Counted from the first letter of the stretch, positions 2,231 to 23,700 are shown. The stretch: DNA of 47,328 nt from Pseudomonadota bacterium (GCA_039714795.1 JBDLIP010000001.1:1-47328), one strand, 5' to 3'. Program-made: numbers and translations. Notes: generated from the sequence alone by a model not told the origin.

Positions 2231-3049
2231 TCATTTTTGCATATTCCAGTATTGGCTAATCCATGGAGATGGACGAATCGTTTTGTAGACGCACTTGAAA
2301 AACGGTAACCCCTCGGGCGACCAAACTCCACAAATGGCATCAGCAATCTTGGGATGCCCATGAAACGCTAAAACTTTTGTACCTTCCGGCAATTTTGGCT
2401 CAACAAAGAAACGTAAATACCACACTGGCAATGCATGAAACTTAAAGCTGCGGCACCACTCTTCAGGCCAAAATTTCAAGCGTCCCCACTTTTCAATCAC
2501 CTTCGCTGAGAGATACTCTTGGCTAGCAGTGTAAAACTGCTTAACGACTTCTTTCGGGTGTGCTTCAAAGTATTCTTTTATGAATCCAAGGGTGCCTACC
2601 CGCCACGAATAGCATGTTGCTTGCCCCACACGCTCACTTTTGACACTCCAGTCATTGATAATAACAAAATCATCGCCCAACGGATAAGAAACGAAGCAAT
2701 CCAGCTCACCGGTAATCACCACATCAAGATCAAAAAACAAAACACGCTGTCCGTTCAACCCACCCAACTCATCATCACAAAGGCCAGCTTCTTTTTGGTA
2801 AGCATACTTCACATCCTCTGGATTGCATTTCATCACAGGCAATGGTTGAGACAAAATCTCTGGGGTCAGTCCTGTTGCATCGTCGGTAAAACAGAAAAAA
2901 CGAAGTTCGTGTTTCTTCATGTTGCGTTTGACCATAGCGTACAAACAGTTGACGTCATGAGCCGTATACACCTGACCCCACTTAATACAAACAACGTTAG
3001 CAACTGGCTTTTTAGTCTGAGTTTTCTCCATGGTGTTTTCCATATTCAC
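2231..3049 (-). CDS. Conserved hypothetical protein, possibly GT-A-like nucleotide-sugar transferase
   Basis: 272-aa ORF. 'VVCIKWGQVYTAHDVNCLYAMVKRN...FFCFTDD' and the DxD-like 'FFDLDVVITG' resemble a small glycosyltransferase-like family. The start is uncertain (GTG 3049, ATG 3043 or ATG 3031). The product call is weak. Confidence 0.45.
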   Translation of the reverse strand: MNMENTMEKTQTKKPVANVVCIKWGQVYTAHDVNCLYAMVKRNMKKHELRFFCFTDDATGLTPEILSQPLPVMKCNPEDVKYAYQKEAGLCDDELGGLNGQRVLFFDLDVVITGELDCFVSYPLGDDFVIINDWSVKSERVGQATCYSWRVGTLGFIKEYFEAHPKEVVKQFYTASQEYLSAKVIEKWGRLKFWPEEWCRSFKFHALPVWYLRFFVEPKLPEGTKVLAFHGHPKIADAICGVWSPEGLPFFKCVYKTIRPSPWISQYWNMQK

Positions 3050-3075
3050 ATAATGCGTGCAAAAGGCTTATTATA

Positions 3076-3194
3076 CATACTCTCGTAAAACCAAAACCTC
3101 TAGTTTAATGATAGCTGCCAGCTTGCAGTTTACAACTGTAAATGAGCACTTCGAGCGTATCTGGAAACATAGGTTTTGATTTCACTTCAGTATA
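3076..3194 (+). mobile_element. MITE-like palindromic element, subtype A ends
   Basis: 'atactctcgtaaaaccaaaacctctagtttaatgatagctgccagcttgcagtttacaactgtaaatgagcacttcgagcgtatc...aggttttgatttcacttcagtata'. It has ~25-bp imperfect terminal inverted repeats. Confidence 0.85.
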
Positions 3195-3230
3195 TACTAA
3201 AAATACTCATGACCGAGCAACTACTTACAC

Positions 3231-4280
3231 CTACGCTGCGATCCTATGATCCTCCGGTTTACCTTCCGTGCTTTTACCATAAGCAGGTCGATTGAATCGA
3301 TCGCCAGAAACATCTAGGGCCTGGCATGCAATGGCCTTAATCTGGTCTGTTGCTTCATCCGTCTTGACCAACAATGTGTTGATAAGAGCCTGTTGTTCCT
3401 TAATTTTAGCTTCAAGCGAAACGGTTTTTTGCTGCATCAGCTTACGCTCCCCTTCTATTTCCTTAGCCCTTAGTTCAGTGTCAAACTTAAATCGGGTTTG
3501 AAGCTCTGAAGTAACCCGTTTTTCTGTCTCCTCTACAGCTTTAGCAATTTCAGCCGGAATAGCATCAACGGTTTTCTTAAACTGAGCCAATTCGCTCTCG
3601 CTTTGTTTCAAGTCAGCTTCTCGCTGCCCAAGCACCCTTTTCTTTTCGGTCATTTCTTTCTCGAGAGCATTCTGTTTGGCCTTATATTCATCTTCGTCTT
3701 TGCGCCTAGACATCTTAAGGCTATACGAATACTCCTCCTCATCACGGCTACGCTTTCTATCAAGTTCGGATTTAAATTCCTTATACTCTTGCTCCAAAGT
3801 TTGCCGTTCTTTGTGCCAGTGTTGTCGCTTTTCAGCCATATCGTTTTCAAAAGCTGCTTGGGACTCTTGTATTTTCAGTTGATGTTTTTTGCTTTCTTCT
3901 TCTTGAGTAATGATGAGGGCAGACAATGTGTGGGCAGTATCTTTAATGCCGTAAAGATTTTGCAAATGCTCTTGCTCGACCGATATAGATTTTTGCAAAT
4001 CACTCAACCGGCTGAACTCACCAACCAGTTGTTCACTTAAATGGTCAAGTTGCTTGGTTAGATTAATTTTAAGCTCCGCCAGATTAGAAATAATTGCGTG
4101 CTCTGAATTTTTGGTAGCTCTGGACAAAGTATCCCGCTGTTCCACTGATTTCTGCTGTTGCTGAGGATTCTTTTCAGATTGATTTTGTAATTGTTTAACG
4201 ACCTGCTCATAGGCTTCCAAAATCTGATTTTTGGTGTTTTTGGCAGAAATATCTGAGGGGATTTGAGTTTTCTCGGGCAT
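3231..4280 (-). CDS. Charged coiled-coil protein of unknown function
   Basis: The ORF is strongly E/K/Q/R-rich with heptad-like character throughout and no recognisable catalytic motif. The ATG at 4280 is preceded by 'aggag' 8 nt upstream. I prefer it over the TTG at 4304 of the ORF track. Confidence 0.6.
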   Translation of the reverse strand: MPEKTQIPSDISAKNTKNQILEAYEQVVKQLQNQSEKNPQQQQKSVEQRDTLSRATKNSEHAIISNLAELKINLTKQLDHLSEQLVGEFSRLSDLQKSISVEQEHLQNLYGIKDTAHTLSALIITQEEESKKHQLKIQESQAAFENDMAEKRQHWHKERQTLEQEYKEFKSELDRKRSRDEEEYSYSLKMSRRKDEDEYKAKQNALEKEMTEKKRVLGQREADLKQSESELAQFKKTVDAIPAEIAKAVEETEKRVTSELQTRFKFDTELRAKEIEGERKLMQQKTVSLEAKIKEQQALINTLLVKTDEATDQIKAIACQALDVSGDRFNRPAYGKSTEGKPEDHRIAA

Positions 4281-13656: not shown

Positions 13657-14457
13657 ATGAAAAAACTTACTTGGACATTTATACTAGCCGGAGTTTTGCT
13701 TATAGGATACAACCCAGCAAAAGCTACAATCCTAGAAAATCCTATTCAGCAAAGTTCTGAATTAAACAATGCAGACAATGTGAATGGGCTTATCTTAATT
13801 AAAGGAGGCAAAAACGGTGGTGAGGGAGGAAAATCCTTTCGCCAACATAGAAAAGGTAGAGGAGATCACAAAACATTCAGGAAACACAGAAGCAGAGGTG
13901 ACCATAAAGCCTACAGGCACCATAAAAGACAAGGGGGCAAAAAACATTTTAGTCACAGAAGAGGCGGAAAACAGAATTATGCCCACAAAAGGCACCGTGG
14001 AGACCGACATTACTCCCATAAAAGACATCGTGGAGACAGGCATTACGCCCATAAAAGACATCGTGGAGACAGGCATTACTCCCATAAAAGACATCGTGGA
14101 GACAGGCATTACGCCCATAAACGGCATCGTGGTGAGCGTCATTACGCTCGAAGAGGATATCATGGTGAACGTCGTCATGCACGCTGGGAAAAGGGCAATA
14201 AAGAAAAGCACGAGAACTGGAAGAATGGCTACTACCGCAATCATAAAAATGGCTACTACCGGAAGGGCAAAGGTAGCCGTGAGTATGAGGGAGATCCTTC
14301 TGAGTTTGAGGAAACTGAGATATTTGAAGGCGATGAGGTCAGTGATGAGGCAAGTGTTGAGCCTGAGGGAATCATTGAAGAGACCGGTAGAGGCCTGATG
14401 CAAAGAGCTCAAGATCGAGTCGTAGATGAAATGTTAAACCGCGTCCTACCACAATAA
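13657..14457 (+). CDS. Secreted, highly basic H/R/K-rich tandem-repeat protein with six RGD motifs and an acidic C-terminal tail
   Basis: SD 'aggag'. Signal peptide 'MKKLTWTFILAGVLLIGYNPAKA'. Five 11-aa units 'HKRHRGDRHY(S/A)'. Acidic tail 'EYEGDPSEFEETEIFEGDEVSDEASVEPEG'. I recognise no homologue. Confidence 0.75.
   Translation: MKKLTWTFILAGVLLIGYNPAKATILENPIQQSSELNNADNVNGLILIKGGKNGGEGGKSFRQHRKGRGDHKTFRKHRSRGDHKAYRHHKRQGGKKHFSHRRGGKQNYAHKRHRGDRHYSHKRHRGDRHYAHKRHRGDRHYSHKRHRGDRHYAHKRHRGERHYARRGYHGERRHARWEKGNKEKHENWKNGYYRNHKNGYYRKGKGSREYEGDPSEFEETEIFEGDEVSDEASVEPEGIIEETGRGLMQRAQDRVVDEMLNRVLPQ
13984..14148 (+). repeat. 33-bp tandem repeat x5 inside the CDS
   Basis: Units start at 13984, 14017, 14050, 14083 and 14116. 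Units 2-4 are identical except for one g/t (Ala/Ser). Unit 5 diverges (RGE). Confidence 0.95.
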
Positions 14458-19091: not shown

Positions 19092-19946
19092 CTAGATATA
19101 CATCTCGTTATCTTCAGAGATAAACTTTTTGTCGTAACCTTCAAACATACAGCGCTCAACCACGTAGGCTTGGGAAAATTCCGTTTTAATACTCTGAAAC
19201 ACGACAGGAAACGGAACTGATATCGGCTGATCACCAGAAAAAGCAAGGCGTTTTTCGAGAGCCTCTCGCTGGCCGCCAATCCAATCAACCCTTTTCTCAT
19301 AAGGTGTACTGGGGTGTATTTTGTGGCTCCGCATACGATAAAGTCCAATGGCGTGCATATAGAGCTCTTTAAGGGCGCCCTGTTCAGCTTGAACCTCGTG
19401 CTCGTTTGCAGCCGCTGCACAGACAAGACCTTCTTCGATTTGCGCATAAAAGATAACAAGCTTTACATTCTTATCCGCTAACTTAGGCCAAATCGCATAA
19501 AAACTGGAAAAACAAAATTCCTTGTCAATTCCTTGAAAAAAGCTTTTGTTTTCTTCATTAACCGCCTCTCTGACTTTGTAGGCGATGTCTTTATTTTCAA
19601 ACCATTCGGGCCATGCATACCTCTCCAACATTTCCCTGTAGGCAATGCTTTTTGCTTTGCGTTGGGCTTTTGCTTTCTGAAAAATAAAAGGATAAGCTGC
19701 AAAACCAGTCGAAGAATTAGCCGTTGAGGATTGATATGCTTTCCGTTCAACGTATTCTGACTGGGCTTTCATAACCGCCTTATACCAAGAAAAATCAGCA
19801 CCACACGCAATACGAGTAAAAATATTGCCAGCTCTTCCCGATTGATCATTAAGGCTACAAATGTACGCCTCCCCCACTTTCAGCTTTTGCAGCGAGAAAG
19901 TCGGAAGAAATTTAGAAAGGTAATTAAAACGAACTTTTTCCAGCAT
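19092..19946 (-). CDS. Hypothetical protein with YcaO-like motif pattern (short 'mini-YcaO' candidate)
   Basis: 284-aa ORF. Three motifs occur in YcaO order. 'KAQSEYVERKAY' resembles E. coli YcaO 'SALGEYFERLS' (recalled from memory). 'SSTGFAAY...AYREMLERYAW' resembles 'VSNGMSAGN...LSEVFERYV'. 'AAAANEHEVQAEQGALKELY' resembles 'FGAHPDFGVALERTVTELL'. A proline motif 'SVPFPVV' lies near the C-terminus. Spacing between motifs 1 and 2 is far shorter than in canonical YcaO. The gene is likely real, but the function is tentative. Confidence 0.45.
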   Translation of the reverse strand: MLEKVRFNYLSKFLPTFSLQKLKVGEAYICSLNDQSGRAGNIFTRIACGADFSWYKAVMKAQSEYVERKAYQSSTANSSTGFAAYPFIFQKAKAQRKAKSIAYREMLERYAWPEWFENKDIAYKVREAVNEENKSFFQGIDKEFCFSSFYAIWPKLADKNVKLVIFYAQIEEGLVCAAAANEHEVQAEQGALKELYMHAIGLYRMRSHKIHPSTPYEKRVDWIGGQREALEKRLAFSGDQPISVPFPVVFQSIKTEFSQAYVVERCMFEGYDKKFISEDNEMYI

Positions 19947-20169
19947 TATTAACCTCCGCTAGTCTTTACAATCAAACAAAATACCCAGCCACTGTACCAA
20001 ATCTCCATCTCAATTGATACTTTTTTTAACTCACTAACATTAATTATATATATTCTTTTTCAATCTTTGACATGATGTTTCTGACGTCAAAAAACTCGAC
20101 TCCTAGCCACAATGACTGGCCATCCGAAACTAGAATGAGCTAATAACCCTAGAAAGAATTATCAACAAG

Positions 20170-20298
20170 CTACAAAATATCTCTCCCAAGTTCCGTCTGT
20201 TCAGAAAGGTTTTCTGCATTCGCGCGATAATTTTCCGCCACAAAACAAAACACCTGCGCCACCAAAATCGCCGATAATAATAGGCAAAATCTTTTCAT
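20170..20298 (-). CDS. Small exported or membrane-anchored peptide, paralogue 2 (42 aa)
   Basis: 'MKRFCLLLSAILVAQVFCFVAENYRANAENLSEQTELGRDIL'. SD 'ggag' lies 10 nt upstream of the ATG at 20298. TAG replaces the CAG of paralogue 1. The ORF track misses it because another frame is longer. Confidence 0.5.
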   Translation of the reverse strand: MKRFCLLLSAILVAQVFCFVAENYRANAENLSEQTELGRDIL

Positions 20299-20529: not shown

Positions 20530-20676
20530 TTAGTTAGTATTATCAACAAGCTGCAAAATATCTCTCCCAAGTTCCATCCGCTCAGAAAGGTTCTCTGCAT
20601 TTGCGCGACAATTTTCCGCCACAAAACAAAACACCTGCGCTACTAAAATTGCTGATAGCAGATAAAATCTTTTCAT
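20530..20676 (-). CDS. Small exported or membrane-anchored peptide, paralogue 1 (48 aa)
   Basis: 'MKRFYLLSAILVAQVFCFVAENCRANAENLSERMELGRDILQLVDNTN'. SD 'ggagg' lies 9 nt upstream of the internal ATG at 20676. It has a positively charged n-region plus a 17-aa hydrophobic stretch. It begins 61 nt after the STAND stop. Confidence 0.55.
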   Translation of the reverse strand: MKRFYLLSAILVAQVFCFVAENCRANAENLSERMELGRDILQLVDNTN

Positions 20677-20737: not shown

Positions 20738-23700
20738 TTAGAAAGGCAAGAAAATATGATAACCAAAACTAAGAGAGTTTTCTAACTCACTGACATTAGC
20801 AGTAGATGTATCTTCGTTTTCAAGTGCTGATGCGATCTTCTCAATATTTATATGCTGGGGGAGGTAAAAATCCTTGAAAACTCTCAAGGATTTTTTCAAT
20901 AATTCTTTTTTTTCCGTGTTTTCTAGGGTTAGTGCCAGATTGGCCATGGCCATGGCAGTGGTGGGATGATTTTTGCCATAAGAATGGCGGATTGTTTTAA
21001 GTGATTGCTGCAAAAGTTTTCTGGCATTCTGGACATCTCCAAGCAAACGGTAGACATTTCCTAAGTTTGCAGAAACTATGGCCGCTAAGAGATGACCTTC
21101 TCCATATTTCTCGTTAAGCTTTTCAATAGATTTTATGAGCAGTTTTTTACTTTGCAAATAATCTCCTAAAATGCAATGAACAATTCCCATACGCGCAATT
21201 AGAATGGAAATCCATGCATTGGTTGTATTATCATCCTTTTCAACAAATTTGAACGCTTCAGCCAAAAGCTGTTTGCTTTCAGAAGTCTTGTGTGTTGCAG
21301 CACAAGCCAGGGCTAGATTTACCATTGAAAGCGCGGTCCAAATGTGACTGTCTCCATGCAATTTTCTGCGTATTTTTAGGGCATTTCGAAAATATGTTTC
21401 GCTTTTTTGTAAATGACCTAAATCATAATAAACAAATCCCAACAGGATCTGATTGTACGCTAGACTAGAAATTGATGTGGGACTTTGAGAGTTTATGTAA
21501 AGAGCATCATCCAGTATCGTCTTTCCCTCTATCCTTAGACCCAACACATAATTAATCCACCCTAGCATATATAACACCTGAGCCGTTTCGGCATGATTGT
21601 TACCATAATGTTTCTGGTAGAGCACTAGTGTTTGGGCAAGCACGTTTTTGACCGTACGAAACTCCCCTAACAACATGTGTGCTGTACCATACCGGAAAAG
21701 TGCGAGTGCTGTTTTAGGGTGCTCTTTCCCATAGGTTTTTTCACTAATTGCGGCAATTTTTTTAAAAGCGTCTCGCTTTTTAAAGCTTTTGCCCAAATGG
21801 TGATAAACGGAACCCAATAAAGTTAAAATATGCAAGTTGGTTGGATGATTTTCACCATACAGAGATTCATTAATCTTCAAGGCTTCTTCTAAGATATGTT
21901 CTGCTTTATGGGGCTCATTTAAAACACGATAGGTAAGAGTGTAGATAGAAACCTGAGTTTCATCCGAGGTAAAGGAGCTGACCTCTTTTAGAAACTCTTC
22001 CAACCGAGGGATTGTTTGATCTATTAAATGACGTTCTTTGTTAGAAAGATCCGTATTCTTTGTCCTTCCGGGATATATTTCATCAATAACAACTTTCATC
22101 CCTTTCAAATAGGTCAGTCTTTGTTCCTGATCTAATTTATTCCTGAGCCAGCTAGAGACCAAGCGGTGAACCGAGATATCGTCACCTGAGATTTTTATCA
22201 AAGAGTATTGCCGCAAAATACCGAGCAACCTATTCAATTCGCATTCTGATTTATTATTATTGCCTTCAGATAAGTACCGCACCAAAAGCGATTTGGGAAT
22301 GCTTGCTGGCTGACAAAAAGAGATAAAATTCAGCAAATCAAGCGCCTTCTCACCGTCTTTTGTTTTCTTAATAGAGTTTAAACTAAGTTCCCATGTCGCA
22401 TAGACCGGGTCATGTGTAATATTCAAAGGTGTATTGCTATCGGATAACAGATGTTCTCTTTCAGTTTCATACAATTTTAGATAGTTCGAAATTGAAATGG
22501 CGTTTTCTGTGATATAACCTGCGGCTTGAGATATAGCTAAAGGGGTATAATGCAACTCGTTTAATAGTTTGGCAGCTCTTTGTTTATAGAGCGGTCCTTT
22601 CTGAAAGTTAGAAGGAAGTTGCGCTTCGAGCAAGGCAAAAGATTCCTTTTTTGTCATCACGTCAACCTCAACTGCATTTTTTAGCTTATGGTTGCTTGAG
22701 GTTACGATGATGTGAGCATTATTGGGTAGGTAGTCGTATAGCATAACCATATTTGGTGCATTATCATAGACTAGTAGGGTGCTCCCCTTATTTTCAATCC
22801 AAGTTTTTACTTCCCTAATTTTTTGCGCATCAGACATATTATCGGAAAACAGCTTCAGTTTGTTCCCTATCTCAAAATAATCCACCTTTAATGACGATTC
22901 ATTTTCTGCATTAAGCCATGCTCTAAATTTATAGGATTGCCTAGGATAGTGAATGGCATACATCGCTAAAAAAGTCTTACCGATGCCTCCCAATCCAACC
23001 ACCCCTATGATCTTTGTTGATTGTTTTGCTTGATCTTTGTCCTCAAATTGACTCCATATAGAATCCAGCAGTTCGGTTCGCTTAATATAAGGGTCTGGCA
23101 GCAAAGGGAGGTTCCACTTGAGCATTGAAGCACCCTGCTCTTTTGCAGAAGGTGCTGGCGATGATGGTAATGTTGCATGTACAGAAGAGCTATTGTTTTG
23201 CTTGTCTGTATCCCAATATTTTATATTTAAAGTTAAGAGTACTACACAGATTACTCCAAAAAAAGTTACACTAGTCGCAATGAATTTTAAATAAAAATCT
23301 CTGTTTAGTTCTAGCCTTGCTGCTTGTCTTGGCGTATCTGGCTCCGGCATTTTAGCTATGTTTTGTGTTTTAAATTCATCAAAAGATTCACTGATTTTTG
23401 CTTTTGGCAATAGCGTAGCTAAAAGATTCAAGACAAACAGGTAGTAGTTATCAAAATCTCCCAGGGCAAAGCACCCTAAGCACGAGTCAGATTTTTGCAC
23501 GTCTTTGAAAGAGGTTACTGGATCAAGCGAGAGAAAAATTGTTTGCATTCCCTCCTTTTGATGTTCTGGATTGCTAAGTTCTGACGTATCAGCACCAATG
23601 ATGACAACATAAAAATCTGGGAAGGTGCTTGGTGAGATTTCTATCAGCTGGATTCCCGACAGCTCAAGATGCCTTTTCAAACGTTTTATGTTCTCTGAAC

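Follow-up and report, generated by a model that had tools for sequence, protein, structure and literature searches.

The window analyzed here is a 47,328-nucleotide stretch of DNA from a Pseudomonadota bacterium (GCA_039714795.1 JBDLIP010000001.1:1-47328). One strand carries, in this order, a gene for a large regulator, two small peptide genes, and a gene for a 284-residue protein, here called mini-YcaO, so that the peptide genes lie upstream of the mini-YcaO gene (Table 1). The first-pass annotation of this ORF quoted stretches that follow the order and character of YcaO motifs. All of the quoted strings are present in the translation: CGADFSWYKAVMKAQSEYVERKAY at residues 48-71, SSTGFAAY at residues 78-85, YREMLERYAWPEW at residues 103-115, and LVCAAAANEHEVQAEQGALKELY at residues 174-196. 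SSTGFAAY is indeed followed by YREMLER, but across a spacer of 17 rather than 19 residues, and the distance between motifs 1 and 2, first put at about 45 residues, is 41 when counted from E64 to E105. Purifying selection acts on the gene, with dN/dS values of 0.11-0.21 against four orthologues at 76-81% identity. A search of mini-YcaO for a signal peptide, a membrane helix, or a hydrophobic segment found none, and the protein is predicted to be cytoplasmic.

The short peptide genes that were noticed beside the ORF are two paralogous ORFs with homologues in related loci and dN/dS values of 0.10-0.61 overall. For copy 1, which has homologues in L010-L012, the range is 0.10-0.43. Copy 1 is shortened by a TAG codon in place of a CAG codon of copy 2, and copy 2 has an Arg where copy 1 has a Gln. 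The tandem duplication unit carries the peptide gene together with the 3' end of the regulator gene. Lipoprotein-type peptides were considered and rejected, as a lipobox ([LVI][ASTVI][GAS]C) was sought in the peptides and is present in none of them.

The regulator consists of a GerE/LuxR HTH (residues 36-83), a hydrophobic helix (residues 281-299), an NB-ARC domain, and a TPR array. Its Walker A sequence, GLGGIGKT, is at residue 377, and the protein ends in GYHIFLPF. In all six of the regulators examined, a single strongly hydrophobic helix lies between HTH and Walker A. PADLOC returned no defense-system match for mini-YcaO and only generic TPR/HTH matches for the regulator.

Table 1. Coordinates of genes and features at the mini-YcaO locus, counted from the first nucleotide of the window
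Feature	Position	Strand	Remarks
mini-YcaO gene, 284 aa	19092..19946	-	Intact ORF
Codons G190-A-L-K193-E194, third long helix	19365..19379	-	E194 equivalent to E. coli E290
Codons E105-M-L-E108-R109, second long helix	19620..19634	-	Equivalent to E. coli E199/E202/R203
Codons E64-Y-V-E67-R68, first long helix	19743..19757	-	Equivalent to E. coli E75/E78/R79
Shine-Dalgarno GGAGG, 6 nt 5' of the mini-YcaO ATG	19953..19957	-	Direct sequence reading
Additional degenerate remnant of the duplication unit	20013-20082		
Tandem duplication, unit ~374-381 bp, 86-89% identity	20150..20842	-	Repeat finding, families D1-D4
Peptide gene copy 1, 42 aa, MKRFCLLLSAILVAQVFCFVA/ENYRANAENLSEQTELGRDIL	20170..20298	-	Sec-type N-terminus
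Peptide gene copy 2, 48 aa, MKRFYLLSAILVAQVFCFVA/ENCRANAENLSERMELGRDILQLVDNTN	20530..20676	-	Paralogue of copy 1
Regulator gene, 1128 aa	20738..24124	-	Pfam: GerE/LuxR HTH, NB-ARC, TPR

Fold and ATP site of mini-YcaO

The 284-residue gene product is a truncated YcaO-fold protein and belongs to a family of ~300-residue proteins that has no name. An AlphaFold2 model built on the homologue alignment (pLDDT 92.8, pTM 0.91) was compared with the PDB by Foldseek. The best 15 matches are all YcaO structures (probability 1.0, TMq 0.48-0.60), namely M. kandleri YcaO (6ci7/6cib), McbD (6gri/6gos), and E. coli YcaO (4q84/4q85), and the matches that come after these 15 fall to a TM of ~0.16.

The sequence relationship becomes visible with homologues. 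A search of 5.8 billion proteins yielded 28 relatives of ~284-290 residues. When cluster representatives (50% identity) were searched exhaustively, 161 clusters were found at E<=1e-3, nearly all of them with lengths of 290-315 residues. The window protein by itself scores 11.6 bits (E 0.18) against the Pfam YcaO domain (PF02624), below the curated threshold of 25.7 bits; the domain model has 325 positions, more than the whole of mini-YcaO. Among the 28 close homologues, however, 23 match PF02624 at E<=1 (best 2e-8, 34 bits), and several exceed the Pfam threshold (27-34 bits). An hhalign comparison of the 144-sequence family profile with a canonical YcaO alignment (18 sequences, comprising E. 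coli YcaO and 17 alphaproteobacterial YcaOs) aligns query residues 92-198 to E. coli YcaO residues 186-294 with 94% probability and an E value of 1e-7. Searches of the sequences of PDB chains with mini-YcaO and with the 28-sequence profile found no YcaO. With the 144-sequence profile, MJ1094 was matched only piecemeal, as its three helices are similar to one another. No NCBIfam family was found for mini-YcaO, and the score against the TIGR03604 SagD model is far under the cut-off.

Taken together, the fold search, the profile-profile alignment, and the PF02624 matches of the homologues bear out the original proposal of a minimal YcaO member: profile searches do lead to YcaO, and the predicted fold is that of the YcaO domain. 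Two other options raised in the first-pass annotation fare poorly. A degenerate member is unlikely because the Mg/ATP glutamates are invariant and the gene is under purifying selection. Chance or convergence of an ExxER pattern on a fold unrelated to YcaO, which could appeal to the E value of 0.18 for the window protein alone, is refuted by the Foldseek search and the hhalign alignment and keeps next to no probability in the face of threshold-passing homologues and family-wide invariance.

The three long helices of the model span residues 54-73, 91-117, and 184-207. The Mg2+/ATP residues of E. coli YcaO, which we take to be E75, E78, E199, E202, R203, R286, and E290, were reportedly listed by Dunbar et al. 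in 2014. By hhalign, E105, E108, R109, and E194 of mini-YcaO map to E. coli E199, E202, R203, and E290, and E64 and E67 align to E75 and E78 within an alignment (to E. coli residues 58-81) of low probability and consistent register. Eight residues are invariant in the 28 close homologues (E64, E67, R68, G81, E105, E108, R109, and E194). Across the 144 family sequences, which have 21-30% identity, E64, E67, G81, E108, and E194 are invariant, E105 is present in 142 and replaced by Asp in two, and R68 and R109 are retained in 139 and 141 sequences, respectively. Conservation of the Glu and Arg residues that had been marked as ATP-Mg ligands thus extends to the whole family, with the glutamates invariant or nearly so. 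In McbD, three long helices likewise form the ATP coordination sphere (PMC6395948), and the E202A variant of E. coli YcaO serves as an inactive control (PMC13063428).

The third of the proposed motifs is matched incompletely, as the Arg equivalent to E. coli R286 is absent from the window protein and its position is occupied by G190. This position is Arg in 106 of 126 members of the wider family but in none of the 18 sequences of the window's clade, all of which have Asn, Gly, or Ser. Three residues further on, K193 shows the reverse: Lys in 18 of 18 clade members and Ser, Gly, or Ala in the wider family. Loss at the R286 position and gain of K193 look like the relocation of a needed positive charge, and this correlated Arg-to-Lys swap would argue for a working nucleotide site.

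Compared with the smallest archaeal YcaOs of solved structure, mini-YcaO lacks ~50 residues after helix 1, between the first two ATP helices. The gap is placed there because successive helices are ~90 residues apart in MJ1094 (385 aa), whereas the spacings in mini-YcaO are 41 and 89. In the YcaO fold, alpha/beta subdomains surround a central cavity that binds nucleotide, and the missing residues are part of the first of these (subdomain 1). About 20 residues at the N-terminus and 30 at the C-terminus are absent as well. A PFP sequence, first likened to the Pro-rich C-terminal motif of YcaOs, does not correspond to it: PFP is internal (residues 245-247, 37 residues before the C-terminus), only P245 is conserved (133 of 144 sequences; P247 is Leu in the wider family), and there is no terminal PxPxP. 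The C-terminal Pro of azoline-forming YcaOs inserts into the active site (PMC6395948); the conserved Pro of mini-YcaO, in contrast, lies 39 residues from the end.

Cassettes that contain mini-YcaO

The tie to short peptide genes suspected at the window's locus is conserved across loci, as in RiPP biosynthetic clusters in general, where a small precursor gene adjoins that of the modifying enzyme. A peptide gene lies beside the mini-YcaO gene in the window and at 11 other loci (L001, L002, L004-L006, L010-L012, and L014-L016), and the complete trio of regulator, signal-bearing peptide, and mini-YcaO is found together at 10 loci (the window, L001, L002, L005, L006, L010, L011, L012, L014, and L016). 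L015 is a second assembly of the L002 locus, with identical regulator, peptide, and enzyme, and L004, from a Candidatus Finniella MAG, has peptide and enzyme on a short contig. The trio is rearranged in L006, a gammaproteobacterial MAG, where the peptide gene is divergent and the regulator gene convergent. The close homologue in L013 has neither regulator nor peptide gene within 1.3 kb upstream and 0.7 kb downstream.

Genes flanking the trio are unrelated between loci: an ATP synthase operon lies just downstream in the window, and hexapeptide transferase, alternative oxidase, PGK, and other genes are found elsewhere. Because the flanks vary in every related locus, the trio is, on gene order, a portable unit that is not tied to the atp operon, and a functional link to the adjacent ATP synthase operon was rejected for the same reason.

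Peptides of all loci start with MKK or MKR and a hydrophobic stretch, which is followed in most of them by an AxA-type cleavage site and an acidic, variable part 20-50 residues long. The predicted cleavage site is atypical in the window subclade, with Phe at -3, and peptides of this subclade share the sequence ...E[DN][LI]S[EK][QR]x[EKR][LF]G[KR][DE]IL.... The L002 peptide contains three PAGNHDE repeats. L005 has its own tandem duplication of peptide gene and regulator tail, independent of that in the window. Ser, Thr, or Cys residues are present in all peptides, and no residue or motif is common to all peptide cores of the window's clade.

Searches for genes that accompany other YcaOs were negative in these neighborhoods. 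An E1-like/RRE protein, a dehydrogenase, a protease, an exporter, and an immunity gene were not found in the cassette at the 10 loci, and no nitroreductase gene was found in the window cassette. The window's own genome (95.7% complete) contains no match to TfuA (PF07812) and no canonical YcaO. As some archaeal YcaOs function without TfuA, mini-YcaO may still be a thioamidating enzyme.

The wider family occurs in a second type of operon. All seven of the wider-family loci examined (L003, L008, L009, L020, L021, L022, and the P0200 place) encode a sigma54 response regulator, an exported ~115-aa protein, an SBP_bac_5 protein, mini-YcaO, and a membrane histidine kinase. In these operons, neighboring genes overlap at their stop and start codons, and the mini-YcaO gene overlaps the kinase gene. 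All the SBP_bac_5 proteins have an N-terminal hydrophobic signal, and each kinase has an H-box in addition to two membrane helices; the wider-family mini-YcaOs have neither signals nor membrane helices. The ~115-aa exported proteins have a common C-terminal [ST]-Q-D-x-G(G) motif, which an AF2 model places on a disordered C-terminal tail attached to a small folded core. When this core was used for a fold search, no match was significant, and winged-helix structures came up only as weak look-alikes (E>0.4). Motifs of the [ST]-Q-D-x-G type also end the peptides of L005 (..CNGTQDSDDD) and L006 (..AAQDGCGIEVGG; ..AAQDGCG..).

A maximum-likelihood tree groups the STAND-linked proteins in a single clade (23 rows, SH-aLRT 100) that is nested among the kinase-linked members. 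The mini-YcaO family is very sporadic: when 401 alphaproteobacterial and 401 Pseudomonadota genomes were searched with the family profile, one genome of each set had it, each time the window's own, and an order-level profile search of six genomes found only the window's own gene. By tblastn against plasmids, mini-YcaO had no match, nor did an approximate TfxA sequence.

Possible roles and known systems

The best explanation for these features, to which we give an even chance, is that mini-YcaO is a miniature, catalytically competent YcaO that would modify the neighboring peptide for signaling. Its three long helices keep the Mg2+/ATP-binding Glu and Arg residues of YcaO, and the enzyme would most likely use ATP to phosphorylate a peptide backbone amide oxygen and so allow attack by a nucleophile. 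The most likely substrate would be the small peptide encoded just upstream, of which the window has two copies. An azoline, a thioamide, an amidine, or something new are candidate products. After modification in the cytoplasm, the peptide would leave through Sec by way of its signal-type N-terminus and act as a signal once outside, with the adjacent LuxR-TM-NB-ARC-TPR regulator as candidate receiver.

This order of events is suggested by what the two cassette types share. Both pair a mini-YcaO in the cytoplasm with a small protein or peptide that is exported and whose C-terminal part is accessible. Both also have a receptor, and its domain of a peptide-binding type, TPR or SBP5, is predicted to be outside the cytoplasm. 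On the cytoplasmic side the receptors share nothing, with a GerE HTH in one type and HisKA/HATPase in the other. The simplest way to read the common features is that the peptide is modified before export and that the product is the signal.

Several observations sit uneasily with peptide modification: there is no leader-recognition partner, the peptides have no universal core motif, and the L013 copy is an orphan. RiPP precursors with Sec-type signals are unusual, and mini-YcaO would have to act before export. Furthermore, the NB-ARC ATPase, whose Walker A is intact, is predicted to lie outside the cytoplasm; this is awkward in biochemical terms and makes the sensing step less convincing.

A more specific version of the signaling proposal is a Gram-negative peptide pheromone system, in which the mini-YcaO-modified peptide would be exported by Sec and read outside the cytoplasm by the TPR arm of the regulator. 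This version is tentative and more probably wrong than right. The further details that the regulator would be a single-pass, ToxR-like protein and that sister cassettes of other phyla would use SBP_bac_5 and a kinase instead are held with the same doubt. Functional analogies exist in RRNPP systems, where a small peptide exported by Sec (Phr type) is likewise encoded beside a repeat-domain receptor with TPRs, and in agr, where a dedicated enzyme modifies a peptide that is sensed through a kinase. Neither has any sequence relationship to the mini-YcaO cassette, which differs from both in its membrane-spanning LuxR-NB-ARC-TPR protein or SBP5 and kinase, its YcaO enzyme, and its Gram-negative hosts.

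An active mini-YcaO might instead have another protein as substrate, with candidates in housekeeping proteins and in the cytoplasmic portions of the regulator and the kinase. Archaeal stand-alone YcaOs thioamidate McrA, and these McrA-type enzymes (M. kandleri 6ci7/6cib and M. jannaschii MJ1094, 6pe3) are the best structural matches of mini-YcaO (TMq 0.57-0.59, probability 1.0). Like it, they are single-domain, partner-less proteins with three ExxER-type helices, at 14-15% identity. They have 360-385 residues and helices ~90 residues apart, whereas mini-YcaO is ~100 residues shorter and has helices 1 and 2 only 41 residues apart, and they act on the large folded McrA, whereas the mini-YcaO gene is linked to a small peptide that is exported. 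The thioamidase of uL16 Met82, E. coli YcaO, provides a second parallel, as it acts on a folded protein and has no peptide gene nearby (PMC13063428). [quoted passage not shown] Overlap of the mini-YcaO and kinase genes in the wider family and the orphan copy in L013 would also suit a substrate other than the peptide. Nevertheless, such a substrate is unlikely, given that the two receptor types are without a common cytoplasmic domain and that the exported peptide or protein is what both cassette types have in common. A housekeeping target is also hard to reconcile with so sporadic a family, and TfuA for sulfur delivery is absent.

Catalysis itself could be questioned. As a pseudo-enzyme or scaffold without ATP turnover, mini-YcaO might bind the pre-peptide, as a chaperone or in the timing of export, or bind a nucleotide as sensory input. 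The loss of ~50 residues from subdomain 1, of the R286-equivalent Arg in the window's clade, and of a partner protein and terminal PxPxP would all fit, as would the constant location of the gene within signal-transduction operons. However, binding-only relatives usually lose their metal/ATP-binding residues, and mini-YcaO proteins keep the corresponding glutamates, four of them strictly invariant and E105 changed to Asp in only two of 144 sequences. Such strictness is expected of catalysis. Together with the correlated R-to-K relocation, it makes a non-catalytic role rather improbable.

Still less credit is due to the proposal that mini-YcaO is the maturase of an antibacterial, bacteriocin-like RiPP and that the regulator does no more than control its production, as happens in many clusters for antibiotics. 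Every characterized peptide-modifying YcaO does yield an antibiotic-type product, and the peptide gene of the cassette duplicates repeatedly and diverges fast. The azoline-forming enzymes McbD, LynD, TruD, and BalhD have the fold of mini-YcaO (6gri_D/6gos_D, TMq 0.60) and perform ATP-dependent activation of backbone amides on a ribosomal peptide encoded nearby, but they need an E1-like/RRE partner and usually a dehydrogenase, neither of which is in the mini-YcaO cassette. A published precedent for short YcaO-like proteins is the alphaproteobacterial trifolitoxin (tiarin) cluster of Rhizobium anhuiense T24, which encodes TfxE, a 28.04-kDa protein with a YcaO-like domain (10.64898/2025.12.02.691738). 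TfxE resembles mini-YcaO, in a comparison by size and domain description only, in being short, partner-less, alphaproteobacterial, and encoded beside a small precursor gene. At 28 kDa it also shows that the window protein, contrary to the initial impression, is not the shortest YcaO-like protein known. The site at which trifolitoxin is modified, R-Q-G-C (PMC8816728), bears a loose resemblance to the Q-D-G-C/G motif of mini-YcaO-linked peptides.

The differences from the tfx cluster are nonetheless extensive. It encodes nitroreductase-like dehydrogenases (TfxB/C), a MATE exporter, and a precursor with a leader instead of a Sec signal, and it is without a STAND regulator, binding protein, or kinase. 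The three-gene cassette, in turn, has no immunity gene, exporter, or leader protease, and in the wider family mini-YcaO is hard-wired to a binding protein and a two-component system with no transporter. The mature peptides are, moreover, acidic and hydrophilic, which is also at odds with an antibacterial product.

Searches of the literature found no description of mini, short, or truncated YcaOs, or of a YcaO with NB-ARC/TPR proteins, kinases, or quorum sensing. What is new here is a YcaO lineage that is truncated, has no partner, and occurs in a new genetic setting; small size alone has a precedent in TfxE. YcaO enzymes have been known as makers of antibiotic-type peptides and as modifiers that tune a small number of essential proteins. 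If the signaling proposal is true, YcaO chemistry would, beyond these uses, be a signaling device. Peptide signaling is, to our knowledge, barely known in Gram-negative bacteria, and the fixed ties of mini-YcaO to exported peptides and two kinds of receptor point to modified-peptide signaling in them. The family has no NCBIfam model and is only marginal in Pfam. Its ~300-residue members show how far the YcaO fold can shrink with its ATP site kept, and a compact stand-alone YcaO would suit structural and engineering work. Hosts of the family include protist-endosymbiont-like alphaproteobacteria.

Divergence and duplication of the peptide genes

The tandem peptide genes in the window have diverged. 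Copy 1 is six residues shorter than copy 2 because a TAG stop closes it where copy 2 has CAG (Gln). Mature position 3 is Tyr in copy 1 and Cys in copy 2 and three orthologues, and the Arg-Met of copy 2 is Gln-Thr in copy 1. With the early stop and these substitutions, the two copies are thus not equivalent any more. A degenerate third remnant of the repeat unit, detected by repeat search (family D3), lies immediately upstream of the mini-YcaO gene, and the array formerly contained, or began, one more copy.

As in the window, the peptide gene is tandemly duplicated together with a regulator-tail remnant in L005, an alphaproteobacterial MAG whose mini-YcaO is 51% identical to the window's. The L002 peptide carries three tandem PAGNHDE(R) units C-terminal to its signal sequence, a layout resembling that of a multi-core precursor, and an identical copy is present in L015. 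Elsewhere in the window, an ORF with a signal-like N-terminus contains repeated HKRHRGDRHY(S/A) units and is extremely basic and has an acidic tail.

Coordinates of repeats, peptide genes and associated features
Feature	Location	Extent or detail
Peptide copy 1	window 20170-20298 (-)	42 aa
Peptide copy 2	window 20530-20676 (-)	48 aa
Third repeat-unit remnant	window 20013-20082	regulator-tail part
Tandem duplication	L005:4787-5746	~807 bp; peptide gene and remnant of regulator C-terminal tail
Repeat-bearing peptide	L002:5676-5897	
Regulator C-terminal tail	window 20738-20761	GYHIFLPF
Split regulator gene	L005:1324-4740	384 + 735 aa
Split regulator gene	L010:2-979	238 + 70 aa
Orphan mini-YcaO locus	L013:1403-1807 and 2661-3515	
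Basic ORF	window 13657-14457 (+)	266 aa

Regulator tails and split genes

Alphaproteobacterial regulators in the window and six related loci (L001, L002, L005, L011, L012 and L014) share a similar hydrophobic C-terminal tail; besides the window's GYHIFLPF, its forms are GYHILLPF, GYYILLPF, DYILLLPF, MIQYPF, VLQYPF and NLILPL. This tail is absent from the L006 and L016 regulators. The regulator genes of L005 and L010 are each divided into two ORFs, reflecting either frameshifted pseudogenes or assembly errors.

Orphan and kinase-linked mini-YcaO genes

The L013 mini-YcaO, 77% identical to the window's, is an orphan with neither regulator nor peptide in the 1.3 kb before it or the 0.7 kb after it. 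Two other genes lie upstream of it, one encoding an XRE-type HTH protein and the other an isochorismatase-like protein. In the wider family, two kinase-linked cassettes, those of L021 and the P0200 place, have conjugation genes (TrbC, TraC/TraG-like ATPase) as neighbors on the downstream side of the kinase gene, and a CBASS-like pair (CD_NTase_C, Cap15) also adjoins one of the two. These neighbors suggest that both cassettes are carried on mobile elements.
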